Positions 9,372 to 36,646 of a stretch of 64,000 nucleotides of DNA are shown piece after piece (positions within the stretch are counted from its first letter, which is position 1; each line of letters starts with the position of its first letter). The position numbers were made by a program, and so were the translations under genes. This DNA is from Burkholderiales bacterium (GTDB lineage: Bacteria; Pseudomonadota; Gammaproteobacteria; Burkholderiales; JAHFRG01). The stretch spans positions 16,392 through 80,391 of the forward strand of contig DASZZH010000028.1 in NCBI GenBank assembly GCA_035543335.1, given 5' to 3'. The notes beneath the pieces were generated by a model that worked only from the letters and a program-made list of their open reading frames with translations, made no database searches and was not told the DNA's origin.

Positions 9372-10049
9372 ATGCGCCATAATCAAAATGAAGATTGGGC
9401 AAAACTCTGGAAAAGCATAGTCGAAATAGCAAAAAGCTATCCCGAGAGTGTTGTATTCATCGGCGGGGTTGCCGTTTACATTCATGTTTCCGGTGCCAAG
9501 GACGCAGCGGGGTTCATTGAAACCAGCCATGATGCCGACTTTTACATTTCGCTTGCCGATTTTGCCGATCTGCGCGATGTAGAAGAAGTCACCGCCAATC
9601 GCCGGCTCAACAAGTACCAGATTGTCAAGGACGGACTCGAGTACGATATTTACCTCGAGCACAACAATGCTCTTGCGGTGCCTTACCATGAGGTTTTTGC
9701 CCGCTCGACCGTTATAGAGGGTATCCGCGTTGCATGTCTGGAACACTTGGTGGTATTAAAACTTAACGCCTGGCAGGATCGGCGGGGCAGCGCGAAGGGA
9801 AGAAAAGATGAGCGCGACCTGATCAAGCTCTGTTGGCTGATAGCAAAACAGGGTTTTGACGCCGGTCTGGTGCGCCCTTATCTGACTGCGGAACAAGCCG
9901 GGCTGCTTTCAAACCTGCCCAAGTCGCCCGAATTTCTGGCTGTGACTTCCGGCAACATGCACGCTGCCCGCCCCCTGCGGGAAGCCTGCGAACGCGTGGC
10001 AAAAGAGCTGGCGAAACCGGCCAAGCCGGTCAAGCGTCCAAAGGGGTGA
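9372..10049 (+). CDS. Nucleotidyltransferase-fold protein (AbiEii/MNT-like, tentative)
   Basis: Track ORF 9234-10049; likely start is M47 (9372). VVFIGGVAVYIHVSG...ETSHDADFYIS resembles the GG...(D/E)xD NTase motif. GC is lower than the flanks. Confidence 0.5.
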   Translation: MRHNQNEDWAKLWKSIVEIAKSYPESVVFIGGVAVYIHVSGAKDAAGFIETSHDADFYISLADFADLRDVEEVTANRRLNKYQIVKDGLEYDIYLEHNNALAVPYHEVFARSTVIEGIRVACLEHLVVLKLNAWQDRRGSAKGRKDERDLIKLCWLIAKQGFDAGLVRPYLTAEQAGLLSNLPKSPEFLAVTSGNMHAARPLREACERVAKELAKPAKPVKRPKG

Positions 10050-16106: not shown

Positions 16107-18017
<1,911 letters not shown>

Positions 18018-19853: not shown

Positions 19854-20085
19854 TCAGATCGGGTGCCACGCGAGTTGCTCGATGCGCCCAAAGAATCTGC
19901 CCAAAAAGAGGCTCAGTGTCAAGCGGCTTTCAGCAAGCTGGAGGATGTAATAGCGGGCATGCCGGATCAGGTGCCCACCGGTCTTGAACACCCGCTGCTG
20001 TAGGCTTGTTAGTGACCCGCTCTGAATGGCACGGGGCAGGACCAGCCGACGCAGGAGAATACCGAGATTATAGGCGATCACCCAC
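19854..20085 (-). pseudogene. C-terminal fragment of a DDE transposase (IS4/IS1380-superfamily-like)
   Basis: ...SLTSLQQRVFKTGGHLIRHARYYILQLAESRL... resembles the conserved transposase C-terminus. The N-terminal ~80% is absent, cut at the boundary with the thiC-end repeat. Confidence 0.55.
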
Positions 20086-20148
20086 GGCATGGAGGAAAAA
20101 GCGGTAGAATTCCGGCAGGCGGGCGCTGAGGTGTATCGAAAACTCTGA
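20086..20148 (+). repeat. thiC 3'-end-like copy R1.1
   Basis: ggcatggaggaaaaagcggtagaattccggcaggcgggcgctgaggtgtatcgaaaactctga translates [20 protein letters not shown], cf. genuine ThiC end [20 protein letters not shown]. Confidence 0.8.
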
Positions 20149-21163: not shown

Positions 21164-21484
21164 ATGGCACTGACACGGGATTTCAAGGAAACGGTTCTGG
21201 CGCGCGCGCAGCGTGACGCGCGGTTCCGCGAAGCGCTGTTTACCGAGGCGATCAACGCCTACCTGGCCGGCGATACCACTGTAGGCAAAGCCGTTCTGCG
21301 CGATCTGGTGAACGCGACCATCGGATTCGAAGGTCTCGCGGCGGAAATCAACAAACCGAGCAAGAGCCTGCATCGGATGCTGGCCCCGCGCGGCAATCCA
21401 AACACCGAAAACTTTTTCGACATCGTGAGAGCATTGCAGAAAAAGACGCGCGTGAAGCTGCGTGTAACGGCAAAGCCGGTTTGA
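21164..21484 (+). CDS. Addiction-module antidote-type HTH protein (family usually paired with a RelE/ParE-type killer), no toxin adjacent
   Basis: 106 aa; MALTRDFKETVLARAQRDARFREALFTEAINAYLAGD...SKSLHRMLAPRGNPNTENFFDIVRALQ resembles this antidote family. Confidence 0.6.
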   Translation: MALTRDFKETVLARAQRDARFREALFTEAINAYLAGDTTVGKAVLRDLVNATIGFEGLAAEINKPSKSLHRMLAPRGNPNTENFFDIVRALQKKTRVKLRVTAKPV

Positions 21485-21503
21485 GCAGGATAAGGAAACA
21501 ATC

Positions 21504-21850: not shown

Positions 21851-21972
21851 AAGCTCAAACCCATTCACCCCGGCGAAATTCTGATGGAGGAATTCCTGAA
21901 ACTGAGGCGCTGGAGCGCGGCATGGGAGAAAAAGCGGTAGAATTCCGGCTGGCTGGCTGGGATGTGTATTAG
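21851..21972 (+). repeat. Chimeric scar: first ~17 codons of a HigA-like gene fused to thiC 3'-end-like copy R1.2
   Basis: aagctcaaacccattcaccccggcgaaattctgatggaggaattcctgaa | actgaggcgctggagcgcggcatgggagaaaaagcggtagaattccgg...tattag; left part equals 20861-20911, right part is ThiC-end-like. Confidence 0.75.
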
Positions 21973-23675: not shown

Positions 23676-23882
23676 TCATTGAGCAAAGCCGTTCTGCGCG
23701 ATCTGGTGAACGCGACCATCGGATTCGAAGGTCTCGCGGCGGAAATCAACAAACCGAGCAAGAGCCTGCATCGGATGCTGGCCCCGCGCGGCAATCCCAA
23801 CACCGAAAATTTCTTCGGTATCGTGAGGGCATTACAGAAAAAGACGCGCGTGAAGCTTCGCGTGACGGCCAAAGCGGCTTGA
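23676..23882 (+). pseudogene. 5'-truncated second copy of the antidote-type HTH gene (cf. 21164-21484)
   Basis: Translation (G)KAVLRDLVNATIGFEGLAAEINKPSKSLHRMLAPRGNPNTENFFGIVRALQKKTRVKLRVTAKAA is nearly identical to residues 41-106 of the 21164 gene. Confidence 0.7.
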
Positions 23883-23949
23883 GCGCGGGATGGAGGAAAA
23901 AGCGGTAGAATTCCGGCAGGCGGGCGCTGAAGTGTATCGAAAACTCTGA
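23881..23949 (+). repeat. thiC 3'-end-like copy R1.3
   Basis: gagcgcgggatggaggaaaaagcggtagaattccggcaggcgggcgctgaagtgtatcgaaaactctga. It is followed at 23960-23972 by ATGGCACTGACAC, identical to the start of the 21164 gene. Confidence 0.8.
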
Positions 23950-24676: not shown

Positions 24677-24691
24677 GTCCTGTCCAGCGCT

Positions 24692-24792
24692 CTGATGGAA
24701 AAATTCCTGAAGCCGAGGCGCTGGAGCGCGGCATGGAGGAAAAAGCGGTAGAATTCCGGCAGGCGGGTGCTGAGGTGTATCGAAAGCTATGA
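24692..24792 (+). repeat. Chimeric scar: HigA-like 5' fragment fused to thiC 3'-end-like copy R1.4
   Basis: ctgatggaaaaattcctgaagcc|gaggcgctggagcgcggcatggaggaaaaagcggtagaattccggcaggcgggtgctgaggtgtatcgaaagctatga; in the ThiC frame it reads [28 protein letters not shown]. Confidence 0.8.
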
Positions 24793-24889: not shown

Positions 24890-24895
24890 CTAAGG

Positions 24896-25003
24896 CCCAT
24901 TGTGCACGTTTTGCCGCTGCAGCTCCTCGCCTACCATCTAGCGCTGCAAAGAAGCACCGATACGGACAAACCTAATGCATCTCGTGAAGTCGGCGAAGGT
25001 GGA
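24896..25003 (+). pseudogene. glmS: Decayed 3'-terminal fragment of glmS (glutamine-fructose-6-phosphate aminotransferase)
   Basis: [36 protein letters not shown] aligns by eye with the conserved GlmS C-terminus [36 protein letters not shown]. Confidence 0.7.
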
Positions 25004-25097: not shown

Positions 25098-26540
25098 ATG
25101 TCGAGCAAATCTACATTTTCCCAGCATTTTGGCCTAGATAAGTCCCAAGGCGAGCTCGATTTTGTCGACGTTCCACTGAATAGGGACATCGCCTTATTTG
25201 TAGATCCTTTTGCAATTTCGCAGCGTCCGGATCGGTGGTCGCAAGATTCCCATGCCCATCTCCTAGCATTCTTTCAAAAGGTCGTCGATAGTATTAGGAG
25301 CAACCGCAGTGATGAAGCGCGGAATCTTTTGGCCCATCTCAGGGAGCCCAACGAGACCAGATTCGGTCTTTCGCGCGGGAGGCCTCAAGGAGCCGGCATT
25401 GGTCCAAATCAGGCAGACCGCTTATTCCAGGCACTTCGAGAGTCAAACGCTGTAAAGACTGGATTTCTAAGTTCGCTTGAGGAATGTGAACTGATGATCG
25501 AGGGAATCGGCTGGGACAAGATATCCGATCTTACGACAAACGTCGTTCGGGGCAGGCTAGCAGAGTACACTTTCGATCAATGTCAATTGCACGGCGTCCC
25601 CGTACGTGACGTAGCATTAGGGGCATGTTTCTCTCTTAGCGCCCAAGATTGGGTCAACGAATACCTGCAACTGCCTGTTGTGGGTGGAAAGCCGATTTTG
25701 TTGGTTCCGAAGGCCATAGCGCGCTTCGAACCTTCCTATGATCACCAGCATTACTATCGCCACTTCGCTCTTGAGTTCCTGCAAGCGCAACACCTTGCGG
25801 CTGGCTCGAACCTTGTGCACGCCCTCAAGAATGGAAAACGCAAGGTGTACAAGAAGGATCTGCAAGCCAGATACCCATGCACTAAAGACTATCTTTTTCA
25901 GTTTTCGAAAGAACATCCAGAGGTACTTGTTCGATATCGTCAGCATCTTGAACAGCTGGAAAAACGAGGAATACACAGCATAGTAGAAGAGGACGATGAA
26001 CCAGGCATTGCATCAGCGCTTCGCGCCGCATTGGCGGCAATCCCGCCGGGCAATGCACATGCATCGAGTTACCACAAGCTCATGGTCGGCATCCTTGAAT
26101 TTCTCTTTTTCCCGGCGCTCCTCTGCCCGCGAAAGGAACAAGAGATTCACCAAGGCCGTAAGCGAATTGATGTTTTAATGGAGAACGGAGCAACCATCGG
26201 GATCTTCTATCGTCTCCATGCTACTCGAAAGCTTCCCAGCGCATTTGTGGCCTTCGAGTGCAAGAACTACACGACTGAGATCAACAATCCAGAGCTTGAT
26301 CAAATCGCCGGACGCTTCTCGCCGAATCGTGGCAGGGTTGGCTTCATCTGTTGCCGGCATTTTGAGGACAGGGCGCGCTTCGTTCAAAGGTGCCGGGACA
26401 CCCTCAAGGACGACAGAGGTCTCGTGGCCGCGGTTGACGACGCCACGATCGATTTGTGGCTATCCCTAATTGAGGCCCGTCGACGACGAGACCTTGACTC
26501 TGCTATCGCTAGGGTTATCGACGAGGTATGGATTTCGTAG
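25098..26540 (+). CDS. Uncharacterised 480-aa protein; unknown N-terminal ~330 aa plus C-terminal Mrr/PD-(D/E)xK-like nuclease motif
   Basis: C-terminal pattern ...MVGILEFLF...GRKRIDVLMENG...AFVAFECKNYTTEINNPELDQIAGRF (D358, E387-x-K389; nt 26169-26264). Stop is 31 nt upstream of mod on the same strand. About 50% GC, lower than the backbone. Confidence 0.6.
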   Translation: MSSKSTFSQHFGLDKSQGELDFVDVPLNRDIALFVDPFAISQRPDRWSQDSHAHLLAFFQKVVDSIRSNRSDEARNLLAHLREPNETRFGLSRGRPQGAGIGPNQADRLFQALRESNAVKTGFLSSLEECELMIEGIGWDKISDLTTNVVRGRLAEYTFDQCQLHGVPVRDVALGACFSLSAQDWVNEYLQLPVVGGKPILLVPKAIARFEPSYDHQHYYRHFALEFLQAQHLAAGSNLVHALKNGKRKVYKKDLQARYPCTKDYLFQFSKEHPEVLVRYRQHLEQLEKRGIHSIVEEDDEPGIASALRAALAAIPPGNAHASSYHKLMVGILEFLFFPALLCPRKEQEIHQGRKRIDVLMENGATIGIFYRLHATRKLPSAFVAFECKNYTTEINNPELDQIAGRFSPNRGRVGFICCRHFEDRARFVQRCRDTLKDDRGLVAAVDDATIDLWLSLIEARRRRDLDSAIARVIDEVWIS

Positions 26541-26571
26541 AGATTCAATGTAAAGTGGTAGAACTTTCCCA

Positions 26572-28515
26572 ATGAACGAGAAGATCATTACCAACGAACC
26601 CGAGAGGCTTGATCTACGTTCGCATGAAATCGCGGACGACAGGAAGCAGGAGCTGTTGCGCCTGTTTCCCGAAATCCGCACCGAGGGCGGCAAGCTCGAC
26701 TTCGACCTGCTCGAGCGCGCGCTGGGCGAAACCGTGGACGTGGGCAAGGAACGCTACGGCATGAACTGGCCGGGAAAGGCCGATTGCTACAAGACCATCC
26801 AGATGCCCAGTCTCGGCACGCTGCGCCCGTGCCCGGAGGAAAGCGTCAACTTCGACACTACCGAAAACCTCATCATCGAGGGCGACAATCTGGAAGTGCT
26901 CAAACTCCTGCAGAAGTCATATTTGGGTAAGGTGAAGATGATCTACATCGACCCGCCCTATAACACCGGTAATGATTTTATTTACCCGGACAACTACTCT
27001 GAGTCCCTGCAAACCTACCTGGAATACACCGGGCAGACGGATACCGAAGGGCGGAAGTTCAGTACCAATACGGAAGCGGATGGCCGCTTCCACTCGAAGT
27101 GGCTGAACATGATGTACCCGCGCCTGTATCTAGCGAGGAATCTGTTACGGGAGGATGGCATCGTTTTCATTAGTATCGATGACTTTGAGTATGACAATCT
27201 CAAAAAACTATGCGATGAAGTGTTTGGTGAAGAGAATTTCCTTGAAAACATAATATGGAAAAAACGTTATGGCGGCGGTGCTAAAGAAAAGTTCCTCGTC
27301 TCGGTTCACGAATATATTCTTTGCTACGCTAGGAACCTCGACACAATTGCACCTTTATTCGTTCCACAGACGCAAGAATCTATAGAACGGTACTACACGC
27401 TGAAGGACAAGAACTATGCGCAGCTTGGCCCGTATCGCACCCACCCGCTCGAAGCAACTAAGAGCATGGGTGAAAGAAAGAATCTCGTTTTCCCAATTAC
27501 CGCGCCAGATGGCTCCGCAGTCATGCCGAAGAGACAGTGGTTGTGGTCACGAGAGCGAGTCGATGAAGCGTTAAAAAAAGATGGGCTGGCCTTCCTAAAG
27601 GATAAGGATGGTAACTGGTCGGTACATACAAAGCAATATCTAAAAGACGAGGATGGAAATGTTCGCCAGAGCAAGGCATTTTCGATTATCGATAATGTAT
27701 TCACTCAACACGGCACGAACGAAATATTGAATCTGTTTGGTGACGCCCAAATTTACTCATTTCCAAAACCATCAAAGCTGTTGATACCGCTGCTGAATCT
27801 TGCAACTTCTGAATTAGATTCTATTGTTTTGGATTTTTTTGCCGGCTCTGGTAGCATTGCCCACGCTGTCCTCGACCTGAACAAGCAGGACGGCGGCAAC
27901 CGCAAGTTCATCCTCGTCCAGCTACCCGAGCCACTTGACCCTAATGATAATGCTCAAAAAGCAGCCTATGATTTCTGTAAGGTCAATAATTTTGCAACCA
28001 ACATTGCCGAAATCACCAAGGAGCGCGTCCGTCGTGTTATCAATAAGCTCAGCGACGAAGGTGTGGGCAAGCTCGATCTGGAAGGCGCCACAAAGCAGGA
28101 CCGCGGCTTTCGCGTCTTCAAGCTAAGCGAGTCTAACTTCAAACCATGGAATGCCGAAGTGGCACACGAGGCGAAAGTGCTAGAGCAACAGCTTGAGATG
28201 CACGTCGATCACTTCCGTGAGGGCCGTACGGCCGAGGATCTACTCTACGAGATCCTGCTCAAAAGTGGCTTTGCGCTTACCACGCCGGTCGAAACGCTCA
28301 CGCTTGCGGGCAAGGCCGTGCATAGCGTCGCGAGCGGTGCGCTTTTCATTTGCCTAGAGCGCGAACTGACGCTCGAACTCGTTCGCGCGATGGCTGACAA
28401 GAAACCCGAGCGCGTGGTCTGCCTCGACGAAGGTTTCGCCGGCAACGATCAGCTCAAGGCCAACGCCGTCCAGCTCTTCAAGACTAAGGGCGTCACCAGT
28501 TTCAAGACGGTGTGA
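26572..28515 (+). CDS. mod: Type III restriction-modification DNA methyltransferase (Mod), N6-adenine, beta-class motif order
   Basis: 647 aa; motif IV IYIDPPYNTGNDF (about 26950) precedes motif I DFFAGSGS (about 27835), with a long variable region between. Confidence 0.92.
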   Translation: MNEKIITNEPERLDLRSHEIADDRKQELLRLFPEIRTEGGKLDFDLLERALGETVDVGKERYGMNWPGKADCYKTIQMPSLGTLRPCPEESVNFDTTENLIIEGDNLEVLKLLQKSYLGKVKMIYIDPPYNTGNDFIYPDNYSESLQTYLEYTGQTDTEGRKFSTNTEADGRFHSKWLNMMYPRLYLARNLLREDGIVFISIDDFEYDNLKKLCDEVFGEENFLENIIWKKRYGGGAKEKFLVSVHEYILCYARNLDTIAPLFVPQTQESIERYYTLKDKNYAQLGPYRTHPLEATKSMGERKNLVFPITAPDGSAVMPKRQWLWSRERVDEALKKDGLAFLKDKDGNWSVHTKQYLKDEDGNVRQSKAFSIIDNVFTQHGTNEILNLFGDAQIYSFPKPSKLLIPLLNLATSELDSIVLDFFAGSGSIAHAVLDLNKQDGGNRKFILVQLPEPLDPNDNAQKAAYDFCKVNNFATNIAEITKERVRRVINKLSDEGVGKLDLEGATKQDRGFRVFKLSESNFKPWNAEVAHEAKVLEQQLEMHVDHFREGRTAEDLLYEILLKSGFALTTPVETLTLAGKAVHSVASGALFICLERELTLELVRAMADKKPERVVCLDEGFAGNDQLKANAVQLFKTKGVTSFKTV

Positions 28516-28525
28516 ACCGTATGCG

Positions 28526-31504
28526 ATGAAGCTCCAATTCGACGCCAATCAACAGTTCCAGCTCGATGCCGTCGCGGCCGTCACGGATCTCTACGACGGT
28601 CAGCCGCAGGGCGCGCCGGAGTACGCCGTGATCGACATGGGCACTGGAATGGGCCTGTTTACCGGCCAGCAGCAGACCGAGCTGGGCGCAGGCAATCAGT
28701 TGCTGGTGGCGGAGGACAAGCTGTTGGCGAACACTCGCGCTCTTCAGACCCGCAATGACATTGAGGTTTCCGACCCAAAGGCGGCGCTTGAAACGTGGGA
28801 GCTGTTCGACGGCCCTGCTAACCAGACGCGCCACTGCCCGCACTTCTCGGTGGAGATGGAGACCGGTACCGGCAAGACCTACGTTTATCTGCGCACTATC
28901 TTTGAGCTCTCGCGGCGTTACGGTTTCCAGAAGTTCATTATCGTGGTGCCGACCGTGGCGATCCGAGAAGGTGTGCTGAAGAACATCGAAATCACCGCCG
29001 ATCATTTCCGCGCGCTTTACAACAACCTTCCCTTCGAGCACTTCGTCTACGACGCACGGAAGGTCAACCGGCTGCGGCAGTTTGCGACCAGCAACACGCT
29101 GCAGATCCTGGTTATCAACATCGACGCTTTCCGCAAGAATTTCACTGGCACTGAGGAAGAACAGAAGAGCAACGTGATCTATAAGGAAAGCGACAAGCTC
29201 TCAGGCCGGCAGCCGATTGAGTTCGTGCAGGCGGCGCGTGCTGTCGTAATCATCGACGAGCCGCAGAGCGTGGACAGTACCGACAAGGCGCAGGAGGCGA
29301 TCAAGGCGCTTAACCCGCTGTGCACGCTGCGCTACTCCGCCACGCACCGCAACCCGTACAACCTGGTGTACCGGCTCGATCCGGTGCGCGCTTTCGAGCT
29401 GAAGCTAGTCAAGCAAATCGTAGTGGCGAGCGCGGCGGCGGACGGAGCGGCAAACGATGCTTTCGTGCGCGTGGAAAAAATTGACTATAAAAATGGCATC
29501 AAGGCCAAGCTGCGCATTCATGTGCAGGGAACAAGTGGGCCGAAGGAGAAATCCGTTATGGTGAAAAATGGCGCGGACCTCCTTACCCTTTCGAATGAGC
29601 GGGCCTGCTACGCGCAGGGGTTTTCCGTGGCCGAGATCAACGCCGAGCCGGGCAGCGAGTTCGTGCGCTTCAGCAATGGCCGGACGTTGCGCCTCGGCGA
29701 GGAAACGGGCGGCATGCGTGAGGACGTGTGGCGCACCCAGATCAAGCACACGGTGAAGCGGCACATGGAGAAAGAGCTGCAGCTGAAAGCCCGCGGCATC
29801 AAGGTGCTCAGTCTCTTTTTCGTCGACCGGGTGGCCAACTACCGCGACTACGACGCGGCAGGCCAGCCGGTGAAGGGCAAGTTCGCCAAGGTGTTCGAAG
29901 CAGAACTTGCAGCGCTGGCAAAGGACGAACGCTTCCGCGAACTGGAGTGGCTCAAGCAACCAATGGACAAGCTCCATAACGGCTACTTTGCCCAGGACAA
30001 GAAGGGCGTGCTCAAGGACACGCGCGGCGACACACAGGCCGACGACGAGGTCTACAACCTTATTATGAAAGAGAAGGAGCGCCTGCTTTCTCTGGATGAA
30101 CCGCTGCGCTTCATCTTCAGCCACTCGGCGCTGCGCGAAGGCTGGGACAACCCGAATGTGTTTCAAATCTGCACGCTCAATGAAACCCGAAGCGCGGTGA
30201 AGAAGCGGCAGGAAATCGGTCGCGGCATGCGTCTGCCGGTGGACCAGAACGGCCTGCGCGTCTTTGACGAGTCGGTGAACAAGCTCTATGTCATGGCCAA
30301 CGAGAGCTACGAGGATTTCGCCCGCGCCTTGCAGACTGAGTACGAAGAAGAATGCGGCGTAACCTTCGGCAAAGTGCCGCTCACTGCGCTTGCCAAAATC
30401 ATTCGGGTGGTGGACGGCGAAGAACGCCCGATTGGGCATGAGGCGGCGGTCACGATACGAGACGCGTTAGTGAATCAGAAGATGCTCGACATAGAGGGGC
30501 GCATCCAGCCGGTGTTCGACCCGAAGCGCAAGGACTTCGAACTGGAACTGCCGGAGGCACATCGTGAGTTGGCGCCGGCAGTCATTGATCTGCTCGCGAC
30601 GTATCAGATCGAACGGCACATTCGCCGGGAGCGGGATGACGGGCCCAACCTGCTCAAGAAGGAGGTCACGCTCAGCCCGGAATTCCAGGCACTTTGGGAT
30701 CACATCAAGCCGAAGACGACCTTTCGGGTGGAGTTCGAAACCGAGAAGCTGGTCACACGGGCAGTCGATGAGCTAAAGCGCATGGAGAAAATCGAGATCC
30801 CCAAGATTCATGTCATCACGGGAAAAGTAGAGGTTACGAAGGGTGGCGTTACAACGAGGGCCACGGGTGCGGCCCAGGAACTAGCTAGTTACAGCTCGCG
30901 CCCCATACCTGACGTACTTGCCTACCTGCAGAACGAAACCGAGCTGACGCGATCAACACTGGTCCGCATCCTCAAGGAATCGGGACGGCTCGTTGAGTTT
31001 TTCAACAATCCGCAGCGATTCATGGATGCCATGGTAGCGATTCTCAAGCATGAGTTGCACCGCCTGCTGGTGGATGGTATCAAGTACGAGCGGATCGATG
31101 GCACGGGCTCGGAAGCGGAGTGGGAGATGCTGCTCTTCAAGAACGAGGAGCTGATTAACTATCTGACGGCGCTGCAGGTGAACAAGTCGGTCTACGAGTA
31201 TGTGGTCTACGACTCGGAGGTGGAGCGCGAGTTCGCCAAGCGTCTCGACCAGCGCGAGGACATCAGGCTCTTCGTGAAGTTACCCGGCTGGTTCGAGATC
31301 GACACTCCTGTGGGCAAGTACAATCCTGACTGGGCCATTGTGAAGCACGACAACCAAACGCTTTACCTTGTGCGCGAAACCAAAGGCACTAAAGATTTCA
31401 TGAACCTCCGCACCAGCGAGGCGGACAAGGTGCGATGCGGGCAGAAGCACTTCGAGACATTAGGTGTTCCGTTTGCTGTGGCAGTCACGGCAGACGAGGT
31501 ATGA
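28526..31504 (+). CDS. res: Type III restriction enzyme Res subunit (helicase-nuclease)
   Basis: 992 aa; Walker A METGTGKTY, DEAH-variant VVIIDEPQS, SALREGWDNPNVF, C-terminal PD...ExK nuclease (YNPDWAIV...LYLVRETKG). Confidence 0.92.
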   Translation: MKLQFDANQQFQLDAVAAVTDLYDGQPQGAPEYAVIDMGTGMGLFTGQQQTELGAGNQLLVAEDKLLANTRALQTRNDIEVSDPKAALETWELFDGPANQTRHCPHFSVEMETGTGKTYVYLRTIFELSRRYGFQKFIIVVPTVAIREGVLKNIEITADHFRALYNNLPFEHFVYDARKVNRLRQFATSNTLQILVINIDAFRKNFTGTEEEQKSNVIYKESDKLSGRQPIEFVQAARAVVIIDEPQSVDSTDKAQEAIKALNPLCTLRYSATHRNPYNLVYRLDPVRAFELKLVKQIVVASAAADGAANDAFVRVEKIDYKNGIKAKLRIHVQGTSGPKEKSVMVKNGADLLTLSNERACYAQGFSVAEINAEPGSEFVRFSNGRTLRLGEETGGMREDVWRTQIKHTVKRHMEKELQLKARGIKVLSLFFVDRVANYRDYDAAGQPVKGKFAKVFEAELAALAKDERFRELEWLKQPMDKLHNGYFAQDKKGVLKDTRGDTQADDEVYNLIMKEKERLLSLDEPLRFIFSHSALREGWDNPNVFQICTLNETRSAVKKRQEIGRGMRLPVDQNGLRVFDESVNKLYVMANESYEDFARALQTEYEEECGVTFGKVPLTALAKIIRVVDGEERPIGHEAAVTIRDALVNQKMLDIEGRIQPVFDPKRKDFELELPEAHRELAPAVIDLLATYQIERHIRRERDDGPNLLKKEVTLSPEFQALWDHIKPKTTFRVEFETEKLVTRAVDELKRMEKIEIPKIHVITGKVEVTKGGVTTRATGAAQELASYSSRPIPDVLAYLQNETELTRSTLVRILKESGRLVEFFNNPQRFMDAMVAILKHELHRLLVDGIKYERIDGTGSEAEWEMLLFKNEELINYLTALQVNKSVYEYVVYDSEVEREFAKRLDQREDIRLFVKLPGWFEIDTPVGKYNPDWAIVKHDNQTLYLVRETKGTKDFMNLRTSEADKVRCGQKHFETLGVPFAVAVTADEV

Positions 31505-31631
31505 GAGATAAGAATGGGTGCGATCATGGGGGAGTAAAAATAGGCTCAGATTCGATTTCTGAGTTACGGCCTGTGATCCTTGCACTCCGGAGTGCCGCTT
31601 GGTGCGCGAGGCAAATGTTCCTCACACCGGT

Positions 31632-31735
31632 GTGAGAATATGACAGACATTGAAATCATCACCTCGCAGCAAAAACCTACCGAGGGGATGGTGACGCTGA
31701 CCCATGTCATCTACGCGCTGCACGCTTTCAGCGCG
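31632..31735 (+). repeat. R2.1: truncated copy of the 5' end of the membrane-protein gene at 39527
   Basis: gtgagaatATGacagacattgaaatcatcacctcgcagcaaaaacctaccgaggggatggtgacgctgacccatgtcatctacgcgctgcacgctttcagcgcg encodes MTDIEIITSQQKPTEGMVTLTHVIYALHAFSA, cf. resident MGIDIPQSKPTEGMVTLTHVIYGLHAFSA. Confidence 0.85.
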
Positions 31736-31812
31736 ACGCGGGTCAGTAGCTTCGATTAACCAACGATGGTGTAAATGAGCGCTCAGAACATTATGAAGTG
31801 GTTCATTGACCC

Positions 31813-31927
31813 GCTGGCATCCGCTCCGCGGTCGCGTCCCCACTGTGCGGGGCCCCTGCTCCGCGCTTCGCGTCGCAACCATTCGTTATGGCGACTATTC
31901 TTCGACTTCGCTCAGGACAGGCTCTGA
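31813..31927 (+). repeat. R3.1: conserved GC-rich leader element upstream of fic
   Basis: gctggcatccgctccgcggtcgcgtccccactgtgcggggcccctgctccgcgcttcgcgtcgcaaccattcgttatggcgacta...gctcaggacaggctctga; copies at 35267 and 36424. Confidence 0.75.
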
Positions 31928-31938
31928 GCAGTTGACGC

Positions 31939-32577
31939 ATGACTAATCGTTACCAAGCCCGTGGGATTGAGGCGGAATTCGAGCCTGGCTCACGTGGACG
32001 CGTTCTGCAGAATCTGCTTGGTGTTAAGTCGACCCGAGAGATGGCGCGGCGCGAATCAGAAGCGCTCCTTGTCACGACCCGGCAATTGATTGACGATACA
32101 CGCTCGGACCAGAGATTCACCTCGGAGGACGTCCGGCGGATACATAGGTTATGGTTTGGGGAAATTTATGCGTGGGCTGGGCAATATCGGCACGTCAACA
32201 TTGCCAAGGGCGATTTCATGTTCGCCGCAGCCAGCGAAGTATCTCGGTTGATGCGGGAGTTCGAGCGCGGACCGTTGCATGAATTTACGCCCTGCCGATT
32301 CGCGCCCCATGAGGAACAAGCGCGTGCTTTGGCAGTGGTGCACGCTGAGCTAATCCTGATCCATCCTTTCCGCGAAGGAAACGGTCGTTGCGCGCGCCTG
32401 CTCTCCGTGCTGATGGGGTTGCAGGCAGGATTGCCGGCCCTGGACTTTGTTGGAGTTCGTGGGGATGAAAAGCAACGTTACATTGCCGCCGTCCACGCCG
32501 CTATGGACCGCGACTATGAACCTGATGACCATAGTATTTCGAAAGATTATTGCCCGCACATTGCGGTCACAGGCTAG
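31939..32577 (+). CDS. fic: Fic-domain protein (AMPylase-type toxin), C-terminal frameshift likely
   Basis: 212 aa; Fic motif HPFREGNGRCARLL. After DYEP (about 32520) the paralog-like C-terminus LMTIVFRKIIARTLRSQARAWRG* continues in another frame to 32593. Confidence 0.85.
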   Translation: MTNRYQARGIEAEFEPGSRGRVLQNLLGVKSTREMARRESEALLVTTRQLIDDTRSDQRFTSEDVRRIHRLWFGEIYAWAGQYRHVNIAKGDFMFAAASEVSRLMREFERGPLHEFTPCRFAPHEEQARALAVVHAELILIHPFREGNGRCARLLSVLMGLQAGLPALDFVGVRGDEKQRYIAAVHAAMDRDYEPDDHSISKDYCPHIAVTG

Positions 32578-32904: not shown

Positions 32905-33003
32905 TCAGTTTTCAATTGTGACATTCTTCCTTTGGGCGTGAGAATATGACAGACATTGAAATCATCACGTCGCAGTCAAAACCTACTGAGGAGATGGTGA
33001 CGG
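32905..33003 (+). repeat. R2.2: truncated copy (upstream region plus first ~20 codons)
   Basis: ...tcagttttcaattgtgacattcttcctttgggcgtgagaatATGacagacattgaaatcatcacgtcgcagtcaaaacctactgaggagatggtgacgg; homology ends earlier than in the other copies. Confidence 0.8.
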
Positions 33004-33021: not shown

Positions 33022-33441
33022 TCAGAGCTTACCCACCGCTTCGTAAAAAGCCAGAATTCTGGGCGCAGTAAAGCGGGATTCAGTCAAACCGTGGCAGACG
33101 CGGGCAAATATTTCTTCACCTAACATTCCCTTGGGCGAAAGTACGCCGTGCTTCACACCGTCAACGAGCTTCTGCGACGCTTCAATGCGCGCCTCCGCGT
33201 AGTACACGTAGCTCTTGTGCCGGATGAATGGATGGTCGCCTGCGTACAATTCGCATGCCGGATCGTGTGGGATACCCTCTTGGATGGTGCTTACACCGAC
33301 GAACAGTGAATGCTTCGCGTCGTAGTTAAGGACCTGAGCCGGATCGGTCAGGAGAATGAAAAGGTGTTTTTGGTCGGGATCATGTGCCGGTCCTGACGGG
33401 ACGAGCAATGTCGCCCGCCGATAGGGCACAAACAACTTCAC
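33022..33441 (-). CDS. Hypothetical 139-aa protein, candidate toxin partner of the Panacea-domain antitoxin
   Basis: ATGA overlap with the upstream DUF4065 gene. I recognise no family. Loose resemblance to SH3-barrel (MazF/CcdB-like) toxins is speculative. Confidence 0.4.
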   Translation of the reverse strand: MKLFVPYRRATLLVPSGPAHDPDQKHLFILLTDPAQVLNYDAKHSLFVGVSTIQEGIPHDPACELYAGDHPFIRHKSYVYYAEARIEASQKLVDGVKHGVLSPKGMLGEEIFARVCHGLTESRFTAPRILAFYEAVGKL

Positions 33442-33992
33442 AAGCTCGCGAAGAGCTTATCGATGTGGCGCTGCTGTTCGACCCGTGCTCCCAGCTTTCG
33501 AGCTTCGGCGGGGCTGCGGCCAAGCGCCTTGAATATTTCCTCGTAACTGATGGGAATGGACGACCCGTTCGGGTCTTGCCATTCACGGCAGTAACGGTGG
33601 ATATACTTCACCAAATCCCATTGGTTCACCTTACCGAATTTGGCGAAGACATCGCGAAGAACATCGATGTCAGCATTGCTCAGTTCATCGAGTACTTCTC
33701 GTGTGGCCCTTCGCCTGAGCGATACGGCGTAATCGGCTTTGTCGGCGATCCAGTGATCCCAGCCACGCTCTTGAAACTTCACCGCACCATTGATGAGATT
33801 GAGTGTATTGGATAGCACGGGTCCGTGATCCATGGAAACATAGCGGTCGCCTGAAATCGGGTGTCCGTGACGCTTCATAGATTCTCGATCCGCGAGATAC
33901 AGAAGCTTCATCAGCTTCAGGTATTTCATGCGGGTCCTAGCGTGATTGAGAAGGTACGCCGCCATTTGGGCGACTCGCCGCTCGTTAAACAT
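33438..33992 (-). CDS. Panacea-domain (DUF4065, SocA/PanA-like) antitoxin
   Basis: 184 aa; AAYLLNHARTRMKYLKLMKLLYLADRESMKRHGHPISGDRYVSMDHGPVLSNT matches the DUF4065 pattern. Confidence 0.75.
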   Translation of the reverse strand: MFNERRVAQMAAYLLNHARTRMKYLKLMKLLYLADRESMKRHGHPISGDRYVSMDHGPVLSNTLNLINGAVKFQERGWDHWIADKADYAVSLRRRATREVLDELSNADIDVLRDVFAKFGKVNQWDLVKYIHRYCREWQDPNGSSIPISYEEIFKALGRSPAEARKLGARVEQQRHIDKLFASL

Positions 33993-34089: not shown

Positions 34090-34272
34090 AATAATGGCAG
34101 GCAAAAATGCGGTCGGAGTCATTTTGTTGAATAACAATCTCGCTGTAGGCGTGAGGATATGGCAGACATTGAAATCATCGCATCGCAGTCAAAACCCACC
34201 GAGGGGATGGTGACGCTCACCGATGTCATCTACGCGCCGCACGCTTTCAGCGCGCTGATGGGGGTGCTCGGG
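34090..34272 (+). repeat. R2.3: copy including ~60 bp upstream region and first ~38 codons
   Basis: aaataatggcaggcaaaaatgcggtcggagtcattttg...gtgaggatATGgcagacattgaaatcatcgcatcgcagtcaaaacccaccgaggggatggtgacgctcaccgatgtcatctacgcgccgcacgctttcagcgcgctgatgggggtgctcgggc. The ORF it opens (34159-34377) ends in ATGA on the vapB start. Confidence 0.85.
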
Positions 34273-35044: not shown

Positions 35045-35189
35045 AAAAGCAAATAATGCGGGCGGAGTCGTTTTCACGAGCAATGTGGATGTGAGAATAT
35101 GACAGACAATCATCACATCGCAGTCAAAACCCACAGAGGGCATGGTGACGCTCACCCATGTTATCTACGCGCTGCATGCTTTCAGCGCG
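35044..35189 (+). repeat. R2.4: copy with upstream region; carries an internal 8-nt deletion in the leader ORF
   Basis: aaaaagcaaataatgcgggcggagtcgttttcacgag...gtgagaatATGacagacaatcatcacatcgcagtcaaaacccacagagggcatggtgacgctcacccatgttatctacgcgctgcatgctttcagcgcg. Confidence 0.85.
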
Positions 35190-35266
35190 ACGCGGGTCAG
35201 TAGCCTTGATTAACCGACGATGGTGTCAATGAGCGCTCAGAACATTATGAATTGGTTCATTGACTC

Positions 35267-35405
35267 GCTGGCATCCGCTCCGCGGTCGCATCCCCACTGT
35301 GCGGGGCCCCTGCTCCGCGCTTCGCGTCGCAACCATTCGCTATGGCGACTATCCTTCAGCTGCGCTCAGGACAGGCCCTTCGGTTGCGCTCAGGACAGGC
35401 TCTGA
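35267..35405 (+). repeat. R3.2: conserved leader element upstream of the second fic
   Basis: Near-identical to R3.1 apart from a 24-nt internal duplication (gcgctcaggacaggcccttcggtt). Confidence 0.75.
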
Positions 35406-35416
35406 ACAGTTGACGC

Positions 35417-36067
35417 ATGACTAATCGTTACCAAGCCCATGGGATTGAGGCGGAAATCGAACCTGACTCACGCAGGCGGGTGTTGCGAAACCTTCTGGGT
35501 ATCACGCGCGTACGGGACATGCAGGCTGCGGAATCGCAGGCGCTGCATCTTGCACAGGCGCAGGCAATAGAGACTGTGTCTGATAACCAGCGATTTACCG
35601 CAGCCGATATTTGTCGGCTGCATAGGCTGTGGCTCGGTCCGATTTACGCTTGGGCCGGGGAGTACCGTACCGTGAATCTCGGCAAGGGAGGATTTCAGTT
35701 TGCCAATGCAGAGTTGATCCCCGCGTTGATGGAAGAACTGGAGCGTAAGGTACTGCAAAAGTACACGCCGTGTTTAGCGGCACCCGATGAGGCCATTGCC
35801 GAAGCACTAGCCATCGTGCATGCTGAGCTGGTCCTGGTTCATCCGTTTCGTGACGGCAACGGGCGATTGGCACGGCTGCTCGCGCTTCTCATGGGACTTC
35901 AGGCAGGATTACCACCGCTGGATTTTTCGTCCCTGGACGGGCGCGGCAAGCGTCTTTACATCGCGGGAATCCACGCCGCGATGGGGCACGACTACAGCAC
36001 GTTGATCGGGATGTTCCGAAGAGTTATCGACCGGACTTGGAAGCGTGTTTCTTCCAATAGTCGATAA
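35417..36067 (+). CDS. fic: Fic-domain protein (AMPylase-type toxin)
   Basis: 216 aa; Fic motif HPFRDGNGRLARLL; about 55-60% identical by eye to the 31939 paralog. Confidence 0.9.
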   Translation: MTNRYQAHGIEAEIEPDSRRRVLRNLLGITRVRDMQAAESQALHLAQAQAIETVSDNQRFTAADICRLHRLWLGPIYAWAGEYRTVNLGKGGFQFANAELIPALMEELERKVLQKYTPCLAAPDEAIAEALAIVHAELVLVHPFRDGNGRLARLLALLMGLQAGLPPLDFSSLDGRGKRLYIAGIHAAMGHDYSTLIGMFRRVIDRTWKRVSSNSR

Positions 36068-36506: not shown

Positions 36507-36542
36507 GTCGAGCAGCGCGTCCATAATGTTCCTCGTGCCGGC

Positions 36543-36646
36543 GTGAGAATATGACAGACATTGAAATCATCACATCGCAGACAAAACCTACCGAAGGGAT
36601 GGTGACGCTCACCCATGTCATCTACGCCCTACACGCTTTCAGCGCA
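36543..36646 (+). repeat. R2.5: truncated copy of the membrane-protein gene 5' end
   Basis: gtgagaatATGacagacattgaaatcatcacatcgcagacaaaacctaccgaagggatggtgacgctcacccatgtcatctacgccctacacgctttcagcgca. Confidence 0.85.

Follow-up and report, generated by a model that had tools for sequence, protein, structure and literature searches.

A DUF8370 protein with a PD-(D/E)xK nuclease domain, encoded beside a type III restriction-modification pair in a Burkholderiales bacterium, is a candidate autonomous defence nuclease

Introduction

Type III restriction-modification (R-M) systems of the EcoP15I/EcoP1I kind are Mod2Res enzymes, defined by their Mod and Res subunits only. We analysed a 64,000-nucleotide stretch of DNA from a Burkholderiales bacterium (GenBank assembly GCA_035543335.1, contig DASZZH010000028.1, positions 16,392 to 80,391 of the forward strand; hereafter the window, whose first letter is position 1), in which a mod-res pair of this kind is preceded by an additional gene, designated X. 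A first-pass annotation made from the sequence alone had described the three genes as a type III operon with an extra upstream gene, and the product of X as an N-terminal part that could not be assigned to any family, fused to an Mrr-type nuclease domain. We report here that X is a member of a catalogued, uncharacterised family, that its linkage to mod and res is not conserved and that defence genes of the sensor-nuclease type offer the best description of it.

Several described proteins resemble X in part. Mrr (type IV) and FokI-type endonucleases carry a D...ExK domain at the C-terminus, as X does, and the mrr gene adjoins the hsd R-M genes in E. coli, a location similar to that of X. Shedu SduA, Cap4 and Can2/Card1 share with X a PD-(D/E)xK effector associated with a separate sensing domain (a putative one in X), an occurrence in defence islands and modular exchange. 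A constant module combined with interchangeable toxic effectors is the usual design of single-protein immune sensors. PDC-M36, which has its N-terminal module in common with X, is one of 145 untested candidates, predicted from genes that lie within Hma, BREX, DISARM and type I R-M loci; it is defined in a supplementary table as the cassette FAM_01399>>FAM_00303>>FAM_00303 (A>>B>>B) (Payne et al., bioRxiv 10.1101/2024.01.29.577857). Among the papers searched, we found no main-text mention of PDC-M36, PF28123 or DUF8370, and no report of PDC-M36 being tested.

Results

Gene X encodes a predicted nuclease fused to a separable N-terminal module

Gene X (25098-26540, + strand), taken from the list of open reading frames (ORFs), encodes a protein of 480 aa made of a DUF8370 N-terminal module and a PD-(D/E)xK nuclease domain. 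It is followed on the same strand by mod (26572-28515) and res (28526-31504), with gaps of 31 nt between X and mod and 10 nt between mod and res, exactly as first annotated. The reading of X as a real gene in which an N-terminal domain is fused to a nuclease domain was borne out, and its PD-(D/E)xK domain is conserved. The restriction-endonuclease-like domain spans aa ~298-480 (25989-26537, + strand) and contains the motifs RIDVLMEN, FVAFECKNY and NPELDQIAGRF quoted in the first-pass annotation. The candidate catalytic residues D358 (26169-26171), E387 (26256-26258) and K389 (26262-26264) fall in conserved alignment columns; in a diverse set of 39 homologs (30-59% identity), each was present in 90% of the sequences or more, and all three were invariant across an alignment of 138 homologs. 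Q402 and R406 were likewise conserved, and the C-terminal block GRKRID(358)I...E(387)CK(389)NY...NPELDQ(402)LxGR(406)F was near-invariant in both alignments. The retention of D358, E387 and K389 in the two alignments puts the motif far beyond a chance match.

The AlphaFold2 model of full-length X (pLDDT 92.1, pTM 0.91) displayed an alpha-beta-beta-beta-alpha-beta order in the C-terminal ~180 aa, made of helices at residues 319-337 and 397-404 and strands at 341-345, 359-363, 383-389 and 414-419. Foldseek comparison with the PDB returned weak, mutually consistent matches to the cleavage domains of FokI and Nt.BspD6I, to Can2 and Cap4 (both at low score) and to McrC; among viral models (BFVD), the matches were proteins named 'restriction endonuclease' and Mrr-like proteins. 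By its core order and D...ExK signature, the C-terminal domain belongs to the PD-(D/E)xK superfamily and is a predicted nuclease. The Mrr-type label held at the level of the fold and failed at the level of the family. In Pfam, neither Mrr_cat (PF04471) nor Mrr_N matched X at E <= 1, and one homolog, P0096, matched Mrr_cat at E = 0.035 with 14.7 bits, under the cut-off of 21. Because Mrr_cat does not match X, we rejected an Mrr-family identity and call the domain restriction-endonuclease-like.

The DUF8370 module (25098-25970, + strand, aa 1 to ~291) forms a separable N-terminal domain. As stated in the first-pass annotation, no family could be assigned to this part with the local Pfam and NCBIfam profiles; a precomputed Pfam tag, PF28123/DUF8370, is nevertheless attached to P0001, a protein identical to the product of X, and to the gene called on the independent contig L001, which is identical to the window across X-mod-res. 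The assignment rests on these precomputed tags, the PF28123 model being absent from the Pfam copy used for the profile search. DUF8370 is common to X and all listed homologs, and covers the N-terminal module and not the nuclease. The lone match of X in the local Pfam search, NTP_transf_3, was sub-threshold and was rejected. Searches of PDB sequences with the single sequence and with a profile yielded no meaningful relative, and matches to ETV6 and Na/K-ATPase beta were dismissed as chance. X matched PHROG 27295, a family whose function is not annotated, at 2.7e-93.

In the model, the module is mainly helical and includes one small beta-sheet; a Gly-rich loop at aa 88-102 was modelled with low confidence. 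Proteins of ~316 aa carrying the PF28123 tag consist of the DUF8370 module alone, and one free-standing module, P0400, was modelled on its own with a pLDDT of 93.5. Foldseek comparison of this N-only model with 350,542 PDB chains gave no credible match (best E = 2.3, probability <= 0.09). The structure prediction that had been suggested as a check thus supported a restriction-endonuclease-like C-terminal domain and left the N-module without a PDB fold match. Twelve residues (F22, D30, E83, G90, G98, D140, S143, D144, T158, W185, P204 and K263) were invariant across all the domain architectures described below, and D36 and S92 complete the set that is invariant or at least 90% conserved. The twelve invariant residues point to a conserved binding or catalytic site within the DUF8370 module itself.

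The linkage of X to mod and res is not conserved

The mod-res pair is an intact, typical type III system, the same in kind as EcoP15I and EcoP1I. The 647-aa Mod contains DPPY and FxGxG motifs and matched PF01555 (3.5e-33) and, over its full length, PADLOC MTase_III (3.7e-208). The 992-aa Res carries helicase motifs and a C-terminal endonuclease domain, and matched ResIII (9.2e-15), RE_endonuc PF19778 (8.7e-38), PADLOC REase_III (1.4e-297) and NCBIfam NF012027 (2.1e-107); the PF19778 match agrees with the earlier remark that Res already has a C-terminal nuclease of its own. No terminator-like or promoter-like consensus was found when the 31-nt X-mod spacer (26541-26571, + strand) was scanned. 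Given this and the short gap, it is plausible that X is co-transcribed with mod and res in the source genome.

We surveyed 80 metagenomic loci encoding relatives of Res (39-86% identity). In 41 of them, mod was complete and preceded by 1.5 kb of sequence or more; an X homolog upstream of mod was found in none of these. Sequence of that length was available past res in 42 loci, and in two of them (L031 and L039) an X relative lay directly downstream of res; both are only ~42% identical to X, and in L039 the start codon of the X relative overlaps the stop codon of res. A survey based on X itself, covering ~21 independent loci, found type III-like mod/res genes near X only in the window (with its identical copy L001) and in L016, which is organised as DUF6119-X-two genes-Mod-Res; L031 and L039 came from the Res search and not from the X search. 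When the window was compared with relatives devoid of X, nucleotide homology started 11-27 nt inside mod and did not continue past the stop codon of res. The conserved module therefore leaves out both X and the X-mod spacer, the latter not being conserved in these relatives. A conserved three-gene type III unit is not supported, and co-occurrence gives no support to X as a component of the canonical system. What stood of the proposed three-gene operon was an intact nuclease gene in front of mod; a conserved linkage to the pair was not supported. The three juxtapositions of X or its relatives with this type III family (in the window, L031 and L039) are independent events on different sides of the pair.

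The sole interruption of the homology to X-less relatives was in the central region of mod (27.24-28.0 kb). Over ~27240-28000, blastn detected no nucleotide homology to relatives that are otherwise 70-81% identical, and the GC content dips to 0.46 at the same place. This segment presumably encodes the target-recognition domain, and the coincidence of the break and the dip is consistent with a swapped domain and hence a different recognition sequence.

The spacing of mod and res varied among the related loci. In 17 of 54 type III loci (L079, L072, L040, L082, L106, L102, L035 and ten others), the two genes are 0.9-3.4 kb apart and not ~10 nt. Genes appear to be embedded between mod and res in these loci, as exemplified by a 353-aa ORF in L036, and could supply further defence candidates.

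The DUF8370 module is widespread and combined with alternative C-terminal domains

Homologs of X number more than 1,500, with a length of ~477 aa, and the family comprises 2,272 clusters at 50% identity (E <= 1e-3). Carriers include Burkholderiales, Acidobacteriota, Myxococcota, Verrucomicrobiota, Chloroflexota, Bacteroidota, Bacillota, Alphaproteobacteria and lineages of the candidate phyla radiation (CPR), and homologs from different phyla are 58-63% identical.

The nuclease is one of several partners of the module. In P0268 (603 aa), DUF8370 is fused to a CHAT domain (PF12770, 1.7e-6; PADLOC SAVED_CHAT, 3.7e-6). P0129 (1,144 aa) resembles X along the whole body of the latter, though its nuclease motif is degenerate, and continues with an unassigned middle region of ~300 aa and a C-terminal PNP_UDP_1 domain (5.9e-20). 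In a group of ~440-aa proteins (P0236, P0241, P0256 and P0264), the module is followed by a Gly-rich/coiled tail, in which the segment 'GDNIGG.VG.G..NAR' precedes a helical part with a weak match to PDC-M14B. Proteins of 283-318 aa encoded on plasmids have no nuclease domain at all. Free-standing modules of this kind are the sole cargo besides replication genes on a 4.5-kb Bacillus cereus plasmid (L026, 2500-3456) and a 6.8-kb Lacticaseibacillus paracasei plasmid (L112, 942-1793), are among the few non-replication genes of a 15-kb Bacillus amyloliquefaciens plasmid (L113, 5992-6939) and adjoin a RelE/ParE pair on a 9.5-kb Acinetobacter baumannii plasmid (L027, 4980-5924). Unlike Shedu, in which a constant nuclease is joined to varying N-terminal domains, the DUF8370 family thus has a constant N-module and a varying C-terminal effector. 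X gave no match to PF14082 or to PADLOC Shedu at E <= 1, and no DUF4263, SAVED or CARF domain was detected in it with Pfam and PADLOC. From Mrr and FokI, X differs in its N-module, whose fold is different and unrecognised and which is also paired with non-nuclease effectors.

The catalogued candidate PDC-M36 shares only the N-module with X. X matched PADLOC PDC-M36A at 1.2e-43; the alignment took in positions 7-228 of the 457 in the profile and a second, minor stretch. In X, as in all the other architectures, this profile aligned to no more than the ~230-245 N-terminal positions. The A>>B>>B layout was not seen at the locus of X, where mod follows directly and there are no B genes. No PADLOC model named PDC-M36 matched among the neighbours of any surveyed X homolog, and neither a conserved partner nor a PDC-M36 'B' gene was found among the adjoining genes. 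An A-B-B layout was seen solely on the Methylobacterium plasmid CBMB27-p3, where two small genes, paralogs of each other (31% identity, E = 2e-13), come after the gene of a distant relative of 456 aa (25% identity, D...ExK kept). The embedding of PDC candidates in larger systems is the same in kind as the genomic context of X homologs.

Homologs of X lie near diverse restriction-modification and defence genes

The neighbourhood survey suggested in the first-pass annotation was run on ~25 loci of the X family and revealed a strong association with R-M and defence loci. In ~8 of the 21 loci found without reference to R-M, a system of the R-M or R-M-like kind, McrBC counted, lay no more than a few genes from X; by our own rough estimate, the chance expectation for a random gene is well under 1%. 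The systems were of several types. Type I genes accompany X in L008 (HsdM-HsdS-X, with a 7-nt gap), L014 (AAA ATPase-HsdS-HsdR-YgjP-X) and L017 (HsdS-X-transposase, X being frameshifted). In L009, X follows a DUF1156 methyltransferase and a DUF499 gene, in L019 (Bosea) it precedes an MmeI-like type IIL enzyme, and on Bacillus mycoides p419 (L028) it lies between a Gabija-like TOPRIM+UvrD pair and an integrase followed by McrBC. The R-M-adjacent copies are 41-67% identical to X, a range which indicates that the association with R-M arose many times. Insertion sequence (IS) elements, resolvases, integrases or prophage-type regulators surround the X homologs of L004, L006, L020 and L023.

Other defence-related genes recurred in the survey. 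A Schlafen-like (SLFN-g3) helicase lies no more than a few kb from X homologs of different phyla (L005, 11992-15984; L022, 3422-5937; L018, 3816-6062, where it adjoins a frameshifted X). A small MazG-like gene accompanies the helicase in L005 and L022, together with an HNH gene in the case of L005; this set may be a separate defence cassette using the same hotspots. Directly downstream of the X homolog of L002/L003, a gene at 9458-9898 matched PADLOC Csx23 (4.7e-18), a CRISPR-associated accessory protein family.

X, mod and res form one cassette of a repeat-bounded island

The window carries an island of ~16 kb (~20.2-36.1 kb), between thiC/FAD-oxidase and ABC-transporter genes, that contains HigBA, HipAB, MazEF, X-Mod-Res, two Fic genes, SocA/Panacea and VapBC. 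Both the placement of X in an island and its lower GC content (0.49-0.53, against 0.56-0.59 in the flanking backbone) had been correctly read from the sequence. Toxin-antitoxin cassettes left of X are separated by four direct copies of a ~90-nt repeat (family D4; 20047-20136, 21880-21969, 23848-23937 and 24691-24780), the last of which (+ strand) forms the left boundary of the X-mod-res cassette. Repeat search and alignment, at the level of nucleotides and of the ThiC C-terminal translation, identified them as diverged copies of the 3' end of the resident thiC gene (17940-18017). Their position between cassettes suggests that the island grew by serial site-specific insertions, each bringing a surrogate thiC 3' end. 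No integrase was found among the annotated genes of the island. An integron attC-like identity of the D4 repeats was dropped, since they are copies of the thiC 3' end and no inverted repeats were found.

The right boundary of the cassette is the first of five copies of another repeat (families D1/D3; 31614-31734, + strand, by repeat search and alignment). The further copies (32921-33002, 34133-34253, 35068-35188 and 36525-36645) separate the cassettes that follow res, namely Fic, the SocA pair, VapBC and Fic. These repeats are 82-121 nt long and 68-91% identical to the reference copy, and each opens a short conserved reading frame, MTDIEIITSQ.KPTEGMVTLTHVIYALHAFSA. No inverted repeat was found in them, and an Rfam search of the island, D1/D3 repeats included, returned no RNA family; a gene 5' remnant and a recombination site are the candidate explanations. 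The independent Logan contig L001, identical to the window across X-mod-res, starts within the left boundary repeat and extends a short way beyond the stop codon of res; by our estimate, its end falls in the right boundary repeat.

A pseudogene remnant of the glmS C-terminus (24890-24976, + strand) precedes X by ~120 nt, at a long distance from any glmS gene of the window. It had been noted in the first-pass annotation and matched GlmS residues 571-599 in a phmmer search of PDB sequences (E = 2e-4 to 4e-4). The position just downstream of glmS is known as the hotspot for Tn7 attachment; the X(-mod-res) block may have resided there earlier and moved with a piece of glmS. An hsdR fragment of ~19 aa, reported alongside it, was not confirmed (no match at E <= 1).

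Duplications and further candidates were seen elsewhere in the island. The Fic/DOC paralogs at 31939-32577 and 35417-36067 have duplicated upstream regions (31654-32022 and 35108-35500; 92% and 85% identity), and both genes matched the PADLOC candidate PDC-S04 from end to end (2.2e-68 and 9.1e-71); their matches to SoFic were weaker. A 202-nt direct repeat with 93% identity (21285-21486 and 23683-23884) duplicates the 3' part of a 106-aa gene (21164-21484) beside the HipAB module, which is further evidence of cassette rearrangement. On the reverse strand, two genes (33022-33441 and 33438-33992) share 4 nt. One encodes a SocA/Panacea-domain antitoxin (1.8e-25); the product of the other, 139 aa long, matched nothing in Pfam or PADLOC and is a candidate for a new toxin paired with a Panacea antitoxin.

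Discussion

The combination of a constant DUF8370 module with a nuclease, a CHAT domain, a Gly-rich tail and possibly a PNP domain leads us to favour, with a probability of roughly 0.6, a reading of X as an autonomous defence nuclease that is co-located with the type III pair and not part of it. X would be a horizontally mobile single-gene defence candidate, whose DUF8370 module would recognise a cue that accompanies infection, be it a nucleic-acid feature, a phage protein or a small ligand, and thereby license the PD-(D/E)xK domain to cut DNA, resulting in restriction or abortive infection. X would have been acquired or retained in the same inter-repeat cassette as mod and res, with which it is probably co-transcribed; the two would then act as co-located defence layers and not as one enzyme. 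The first-pass annotation had offered an independent defence gene riding with the R-M system as one alternative, and it is the one that the data favour. Our searches placed X in no non-defence family, the homologs surveyed were associated with R-M and defence loci, and the D/ExK residues proved to be conserved.

Several observations weigh against this reading. The fold similarity of the C-terminal domain is weak by E-value (best 0.018 in the PDB and 0.0068 in BFVD). Some X homologs sit among housekeeping genes (L002/L003). A search of 50,697 phage records returned no X homolog, despite the match to PHROG 27295. Free-standing modules that are the sole cargo of small plasmids fit a pure 'sensor' poorly, which suggests that the module may own an activity. 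Three independent juxtapositions with one type III family leave room for some functional synergy, and we found no experimental work on any member of the family.

Alternatively, X could be a functional third component of the type III system, expressed in one operon with mod and res and acting as a nuclease for DNA that Res cannot cut, as a back-up effector upon phage anti-restriction or as a regulator. The co-directional arrangement with a 31-nt gap and no terminator before mod, the presence of X-mod-res in one inter-repeat cassette with an identical block on an independent contig, the distant relatives directly downstream of res in two related loci (once with overlapping codons) and the frequent embedding of X relatives in other R-M types all fit such a role. 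Set against these are the counts of 0/41 upstream and 2/42 downstream, the end of homology to the relatives at the start of mod, and the lack of mod or res near most X homologs, X also occurring alone beside housekeeping genes and on plasmids. The partners of X belong to unrelated R-M types (I, IIL, III and DUF1156), which argues against a specific protein-protein partnership. We consider a dedicated three-gene system improbable and the least supported of the defence readings. Somewhat easier to entertain, though still unlikely, is that X is a type IV (modification-dependent) or type IIS-like endonuclease, in which DUF8370 reads modified or specific DNA and the FokI/Mrr-like domain cleaves nearby. 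Its layout of N-terminal recognition and C-terminal cleavage is that of FokI and Nt.BspD6I, the best PDB matches; it clusters with R-M systems and McrBC; most loci lack a cognate methyltransferase, so X would have to spare unmodified self DNA; and P0096 retains a weak Mrr_cat signal. The type IV-like effector role raised in the first-pass annotation gained no specific support, however: Mrr_cat stays below threshold for X, which also lacks the Mrr-N winged helix, and no known modified-base reader (SRA, PUA-like EVE/ASCH/YTH, Mrr-N or McrB-N) was found in X by Pfam or fold search, nor a recognised one by NCBIfam or PADLOC. Forms with a CHAT domain, a Gly-rich tail or a degenerate nuclease plus PNP, as well as free-standing ones, would be unexpected of a DNA-targeting reader.

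These same forms raise the question of whether DUF8370 is itself a catalytic or toxic core acting on nucleotides or nucleic acids, with the nuclease as an optional add-on and X as a bifunctional protein. The twelve residues invariant in all architectures, among them D30, E83, D140, S143, D144 and K263, would suit an active site, and P0129 keeps the N-module though its nuclease motif is degenerate. Free-standing modules as the sole non-replication cargo of small Bacillus and Lacticaseibacillus plasmids, and one beside a RelE/ParE toxin-antitoxin pair on an Acinetobacter plasmid, point the same way. A ligand-binding sensor would equally show a conserved polar site, however, free-standing forms could act in trans as in the PDC-M36 A-B-B cassette, and the module has no similarity to a known enzyme fold or family; we hold this explanation to be about as doubtful as the type IV/IIS one. 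It is very unlikely, in our opinion, that X serves the selfish or maintenance functions of mobile elements (as a homing-like nuclease, in plasmid addiction or exclusion, or as a recombination accessory) and merely hitch-hikes through defence hotspots. X homologs do often have integrases, resolvases or IS elements as neighbours, many plasmids carry related genes, the glmS 3' fragment suggests an earlier residence downstream of glmS and pseudogenised copies exist (L017, L018). Yet X is embedded in type I R-M operons devoid of mobility genes (L008, L014), DUF8370 pairs with the classical immune effector domains CHAT and PNP, X itself was not seen to be flanked by terminal repeats or target-site signatures and the 58-63% identity between phyla reflects strong cross-phylum purifying conservation.

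Beyond the autonomous sensor-nuclease favoured here for X, we tentatively raise the possibility that DUF8370 is an unrecognised, widespread immune module with a new fold, which would pass an infection cue on to interchangeable effectors or to partners in trans. That its genes have entered R-M loci of unrelated types time and again would then point to a second-line role, for instance one of firing when restriction is evaded or inhibited.

For annotation, the message is that X should not be labelled a type III subunit. It provides a worked example of R-M-embedded genes beyond the Hma, BREX, DISARM and type I systems of the embedding study. Members of the family are carried by cultivable organisms (Bacillus inaquosorum, Bacillus mycoides, Pedobacter, Bosea and Sorangium), and the alternative effector fusions found in nature could guide studies of mechanism. 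If X protects against phages, it would represent a new single-gene defence family, with a sensing module that has no structural or functional precedent.

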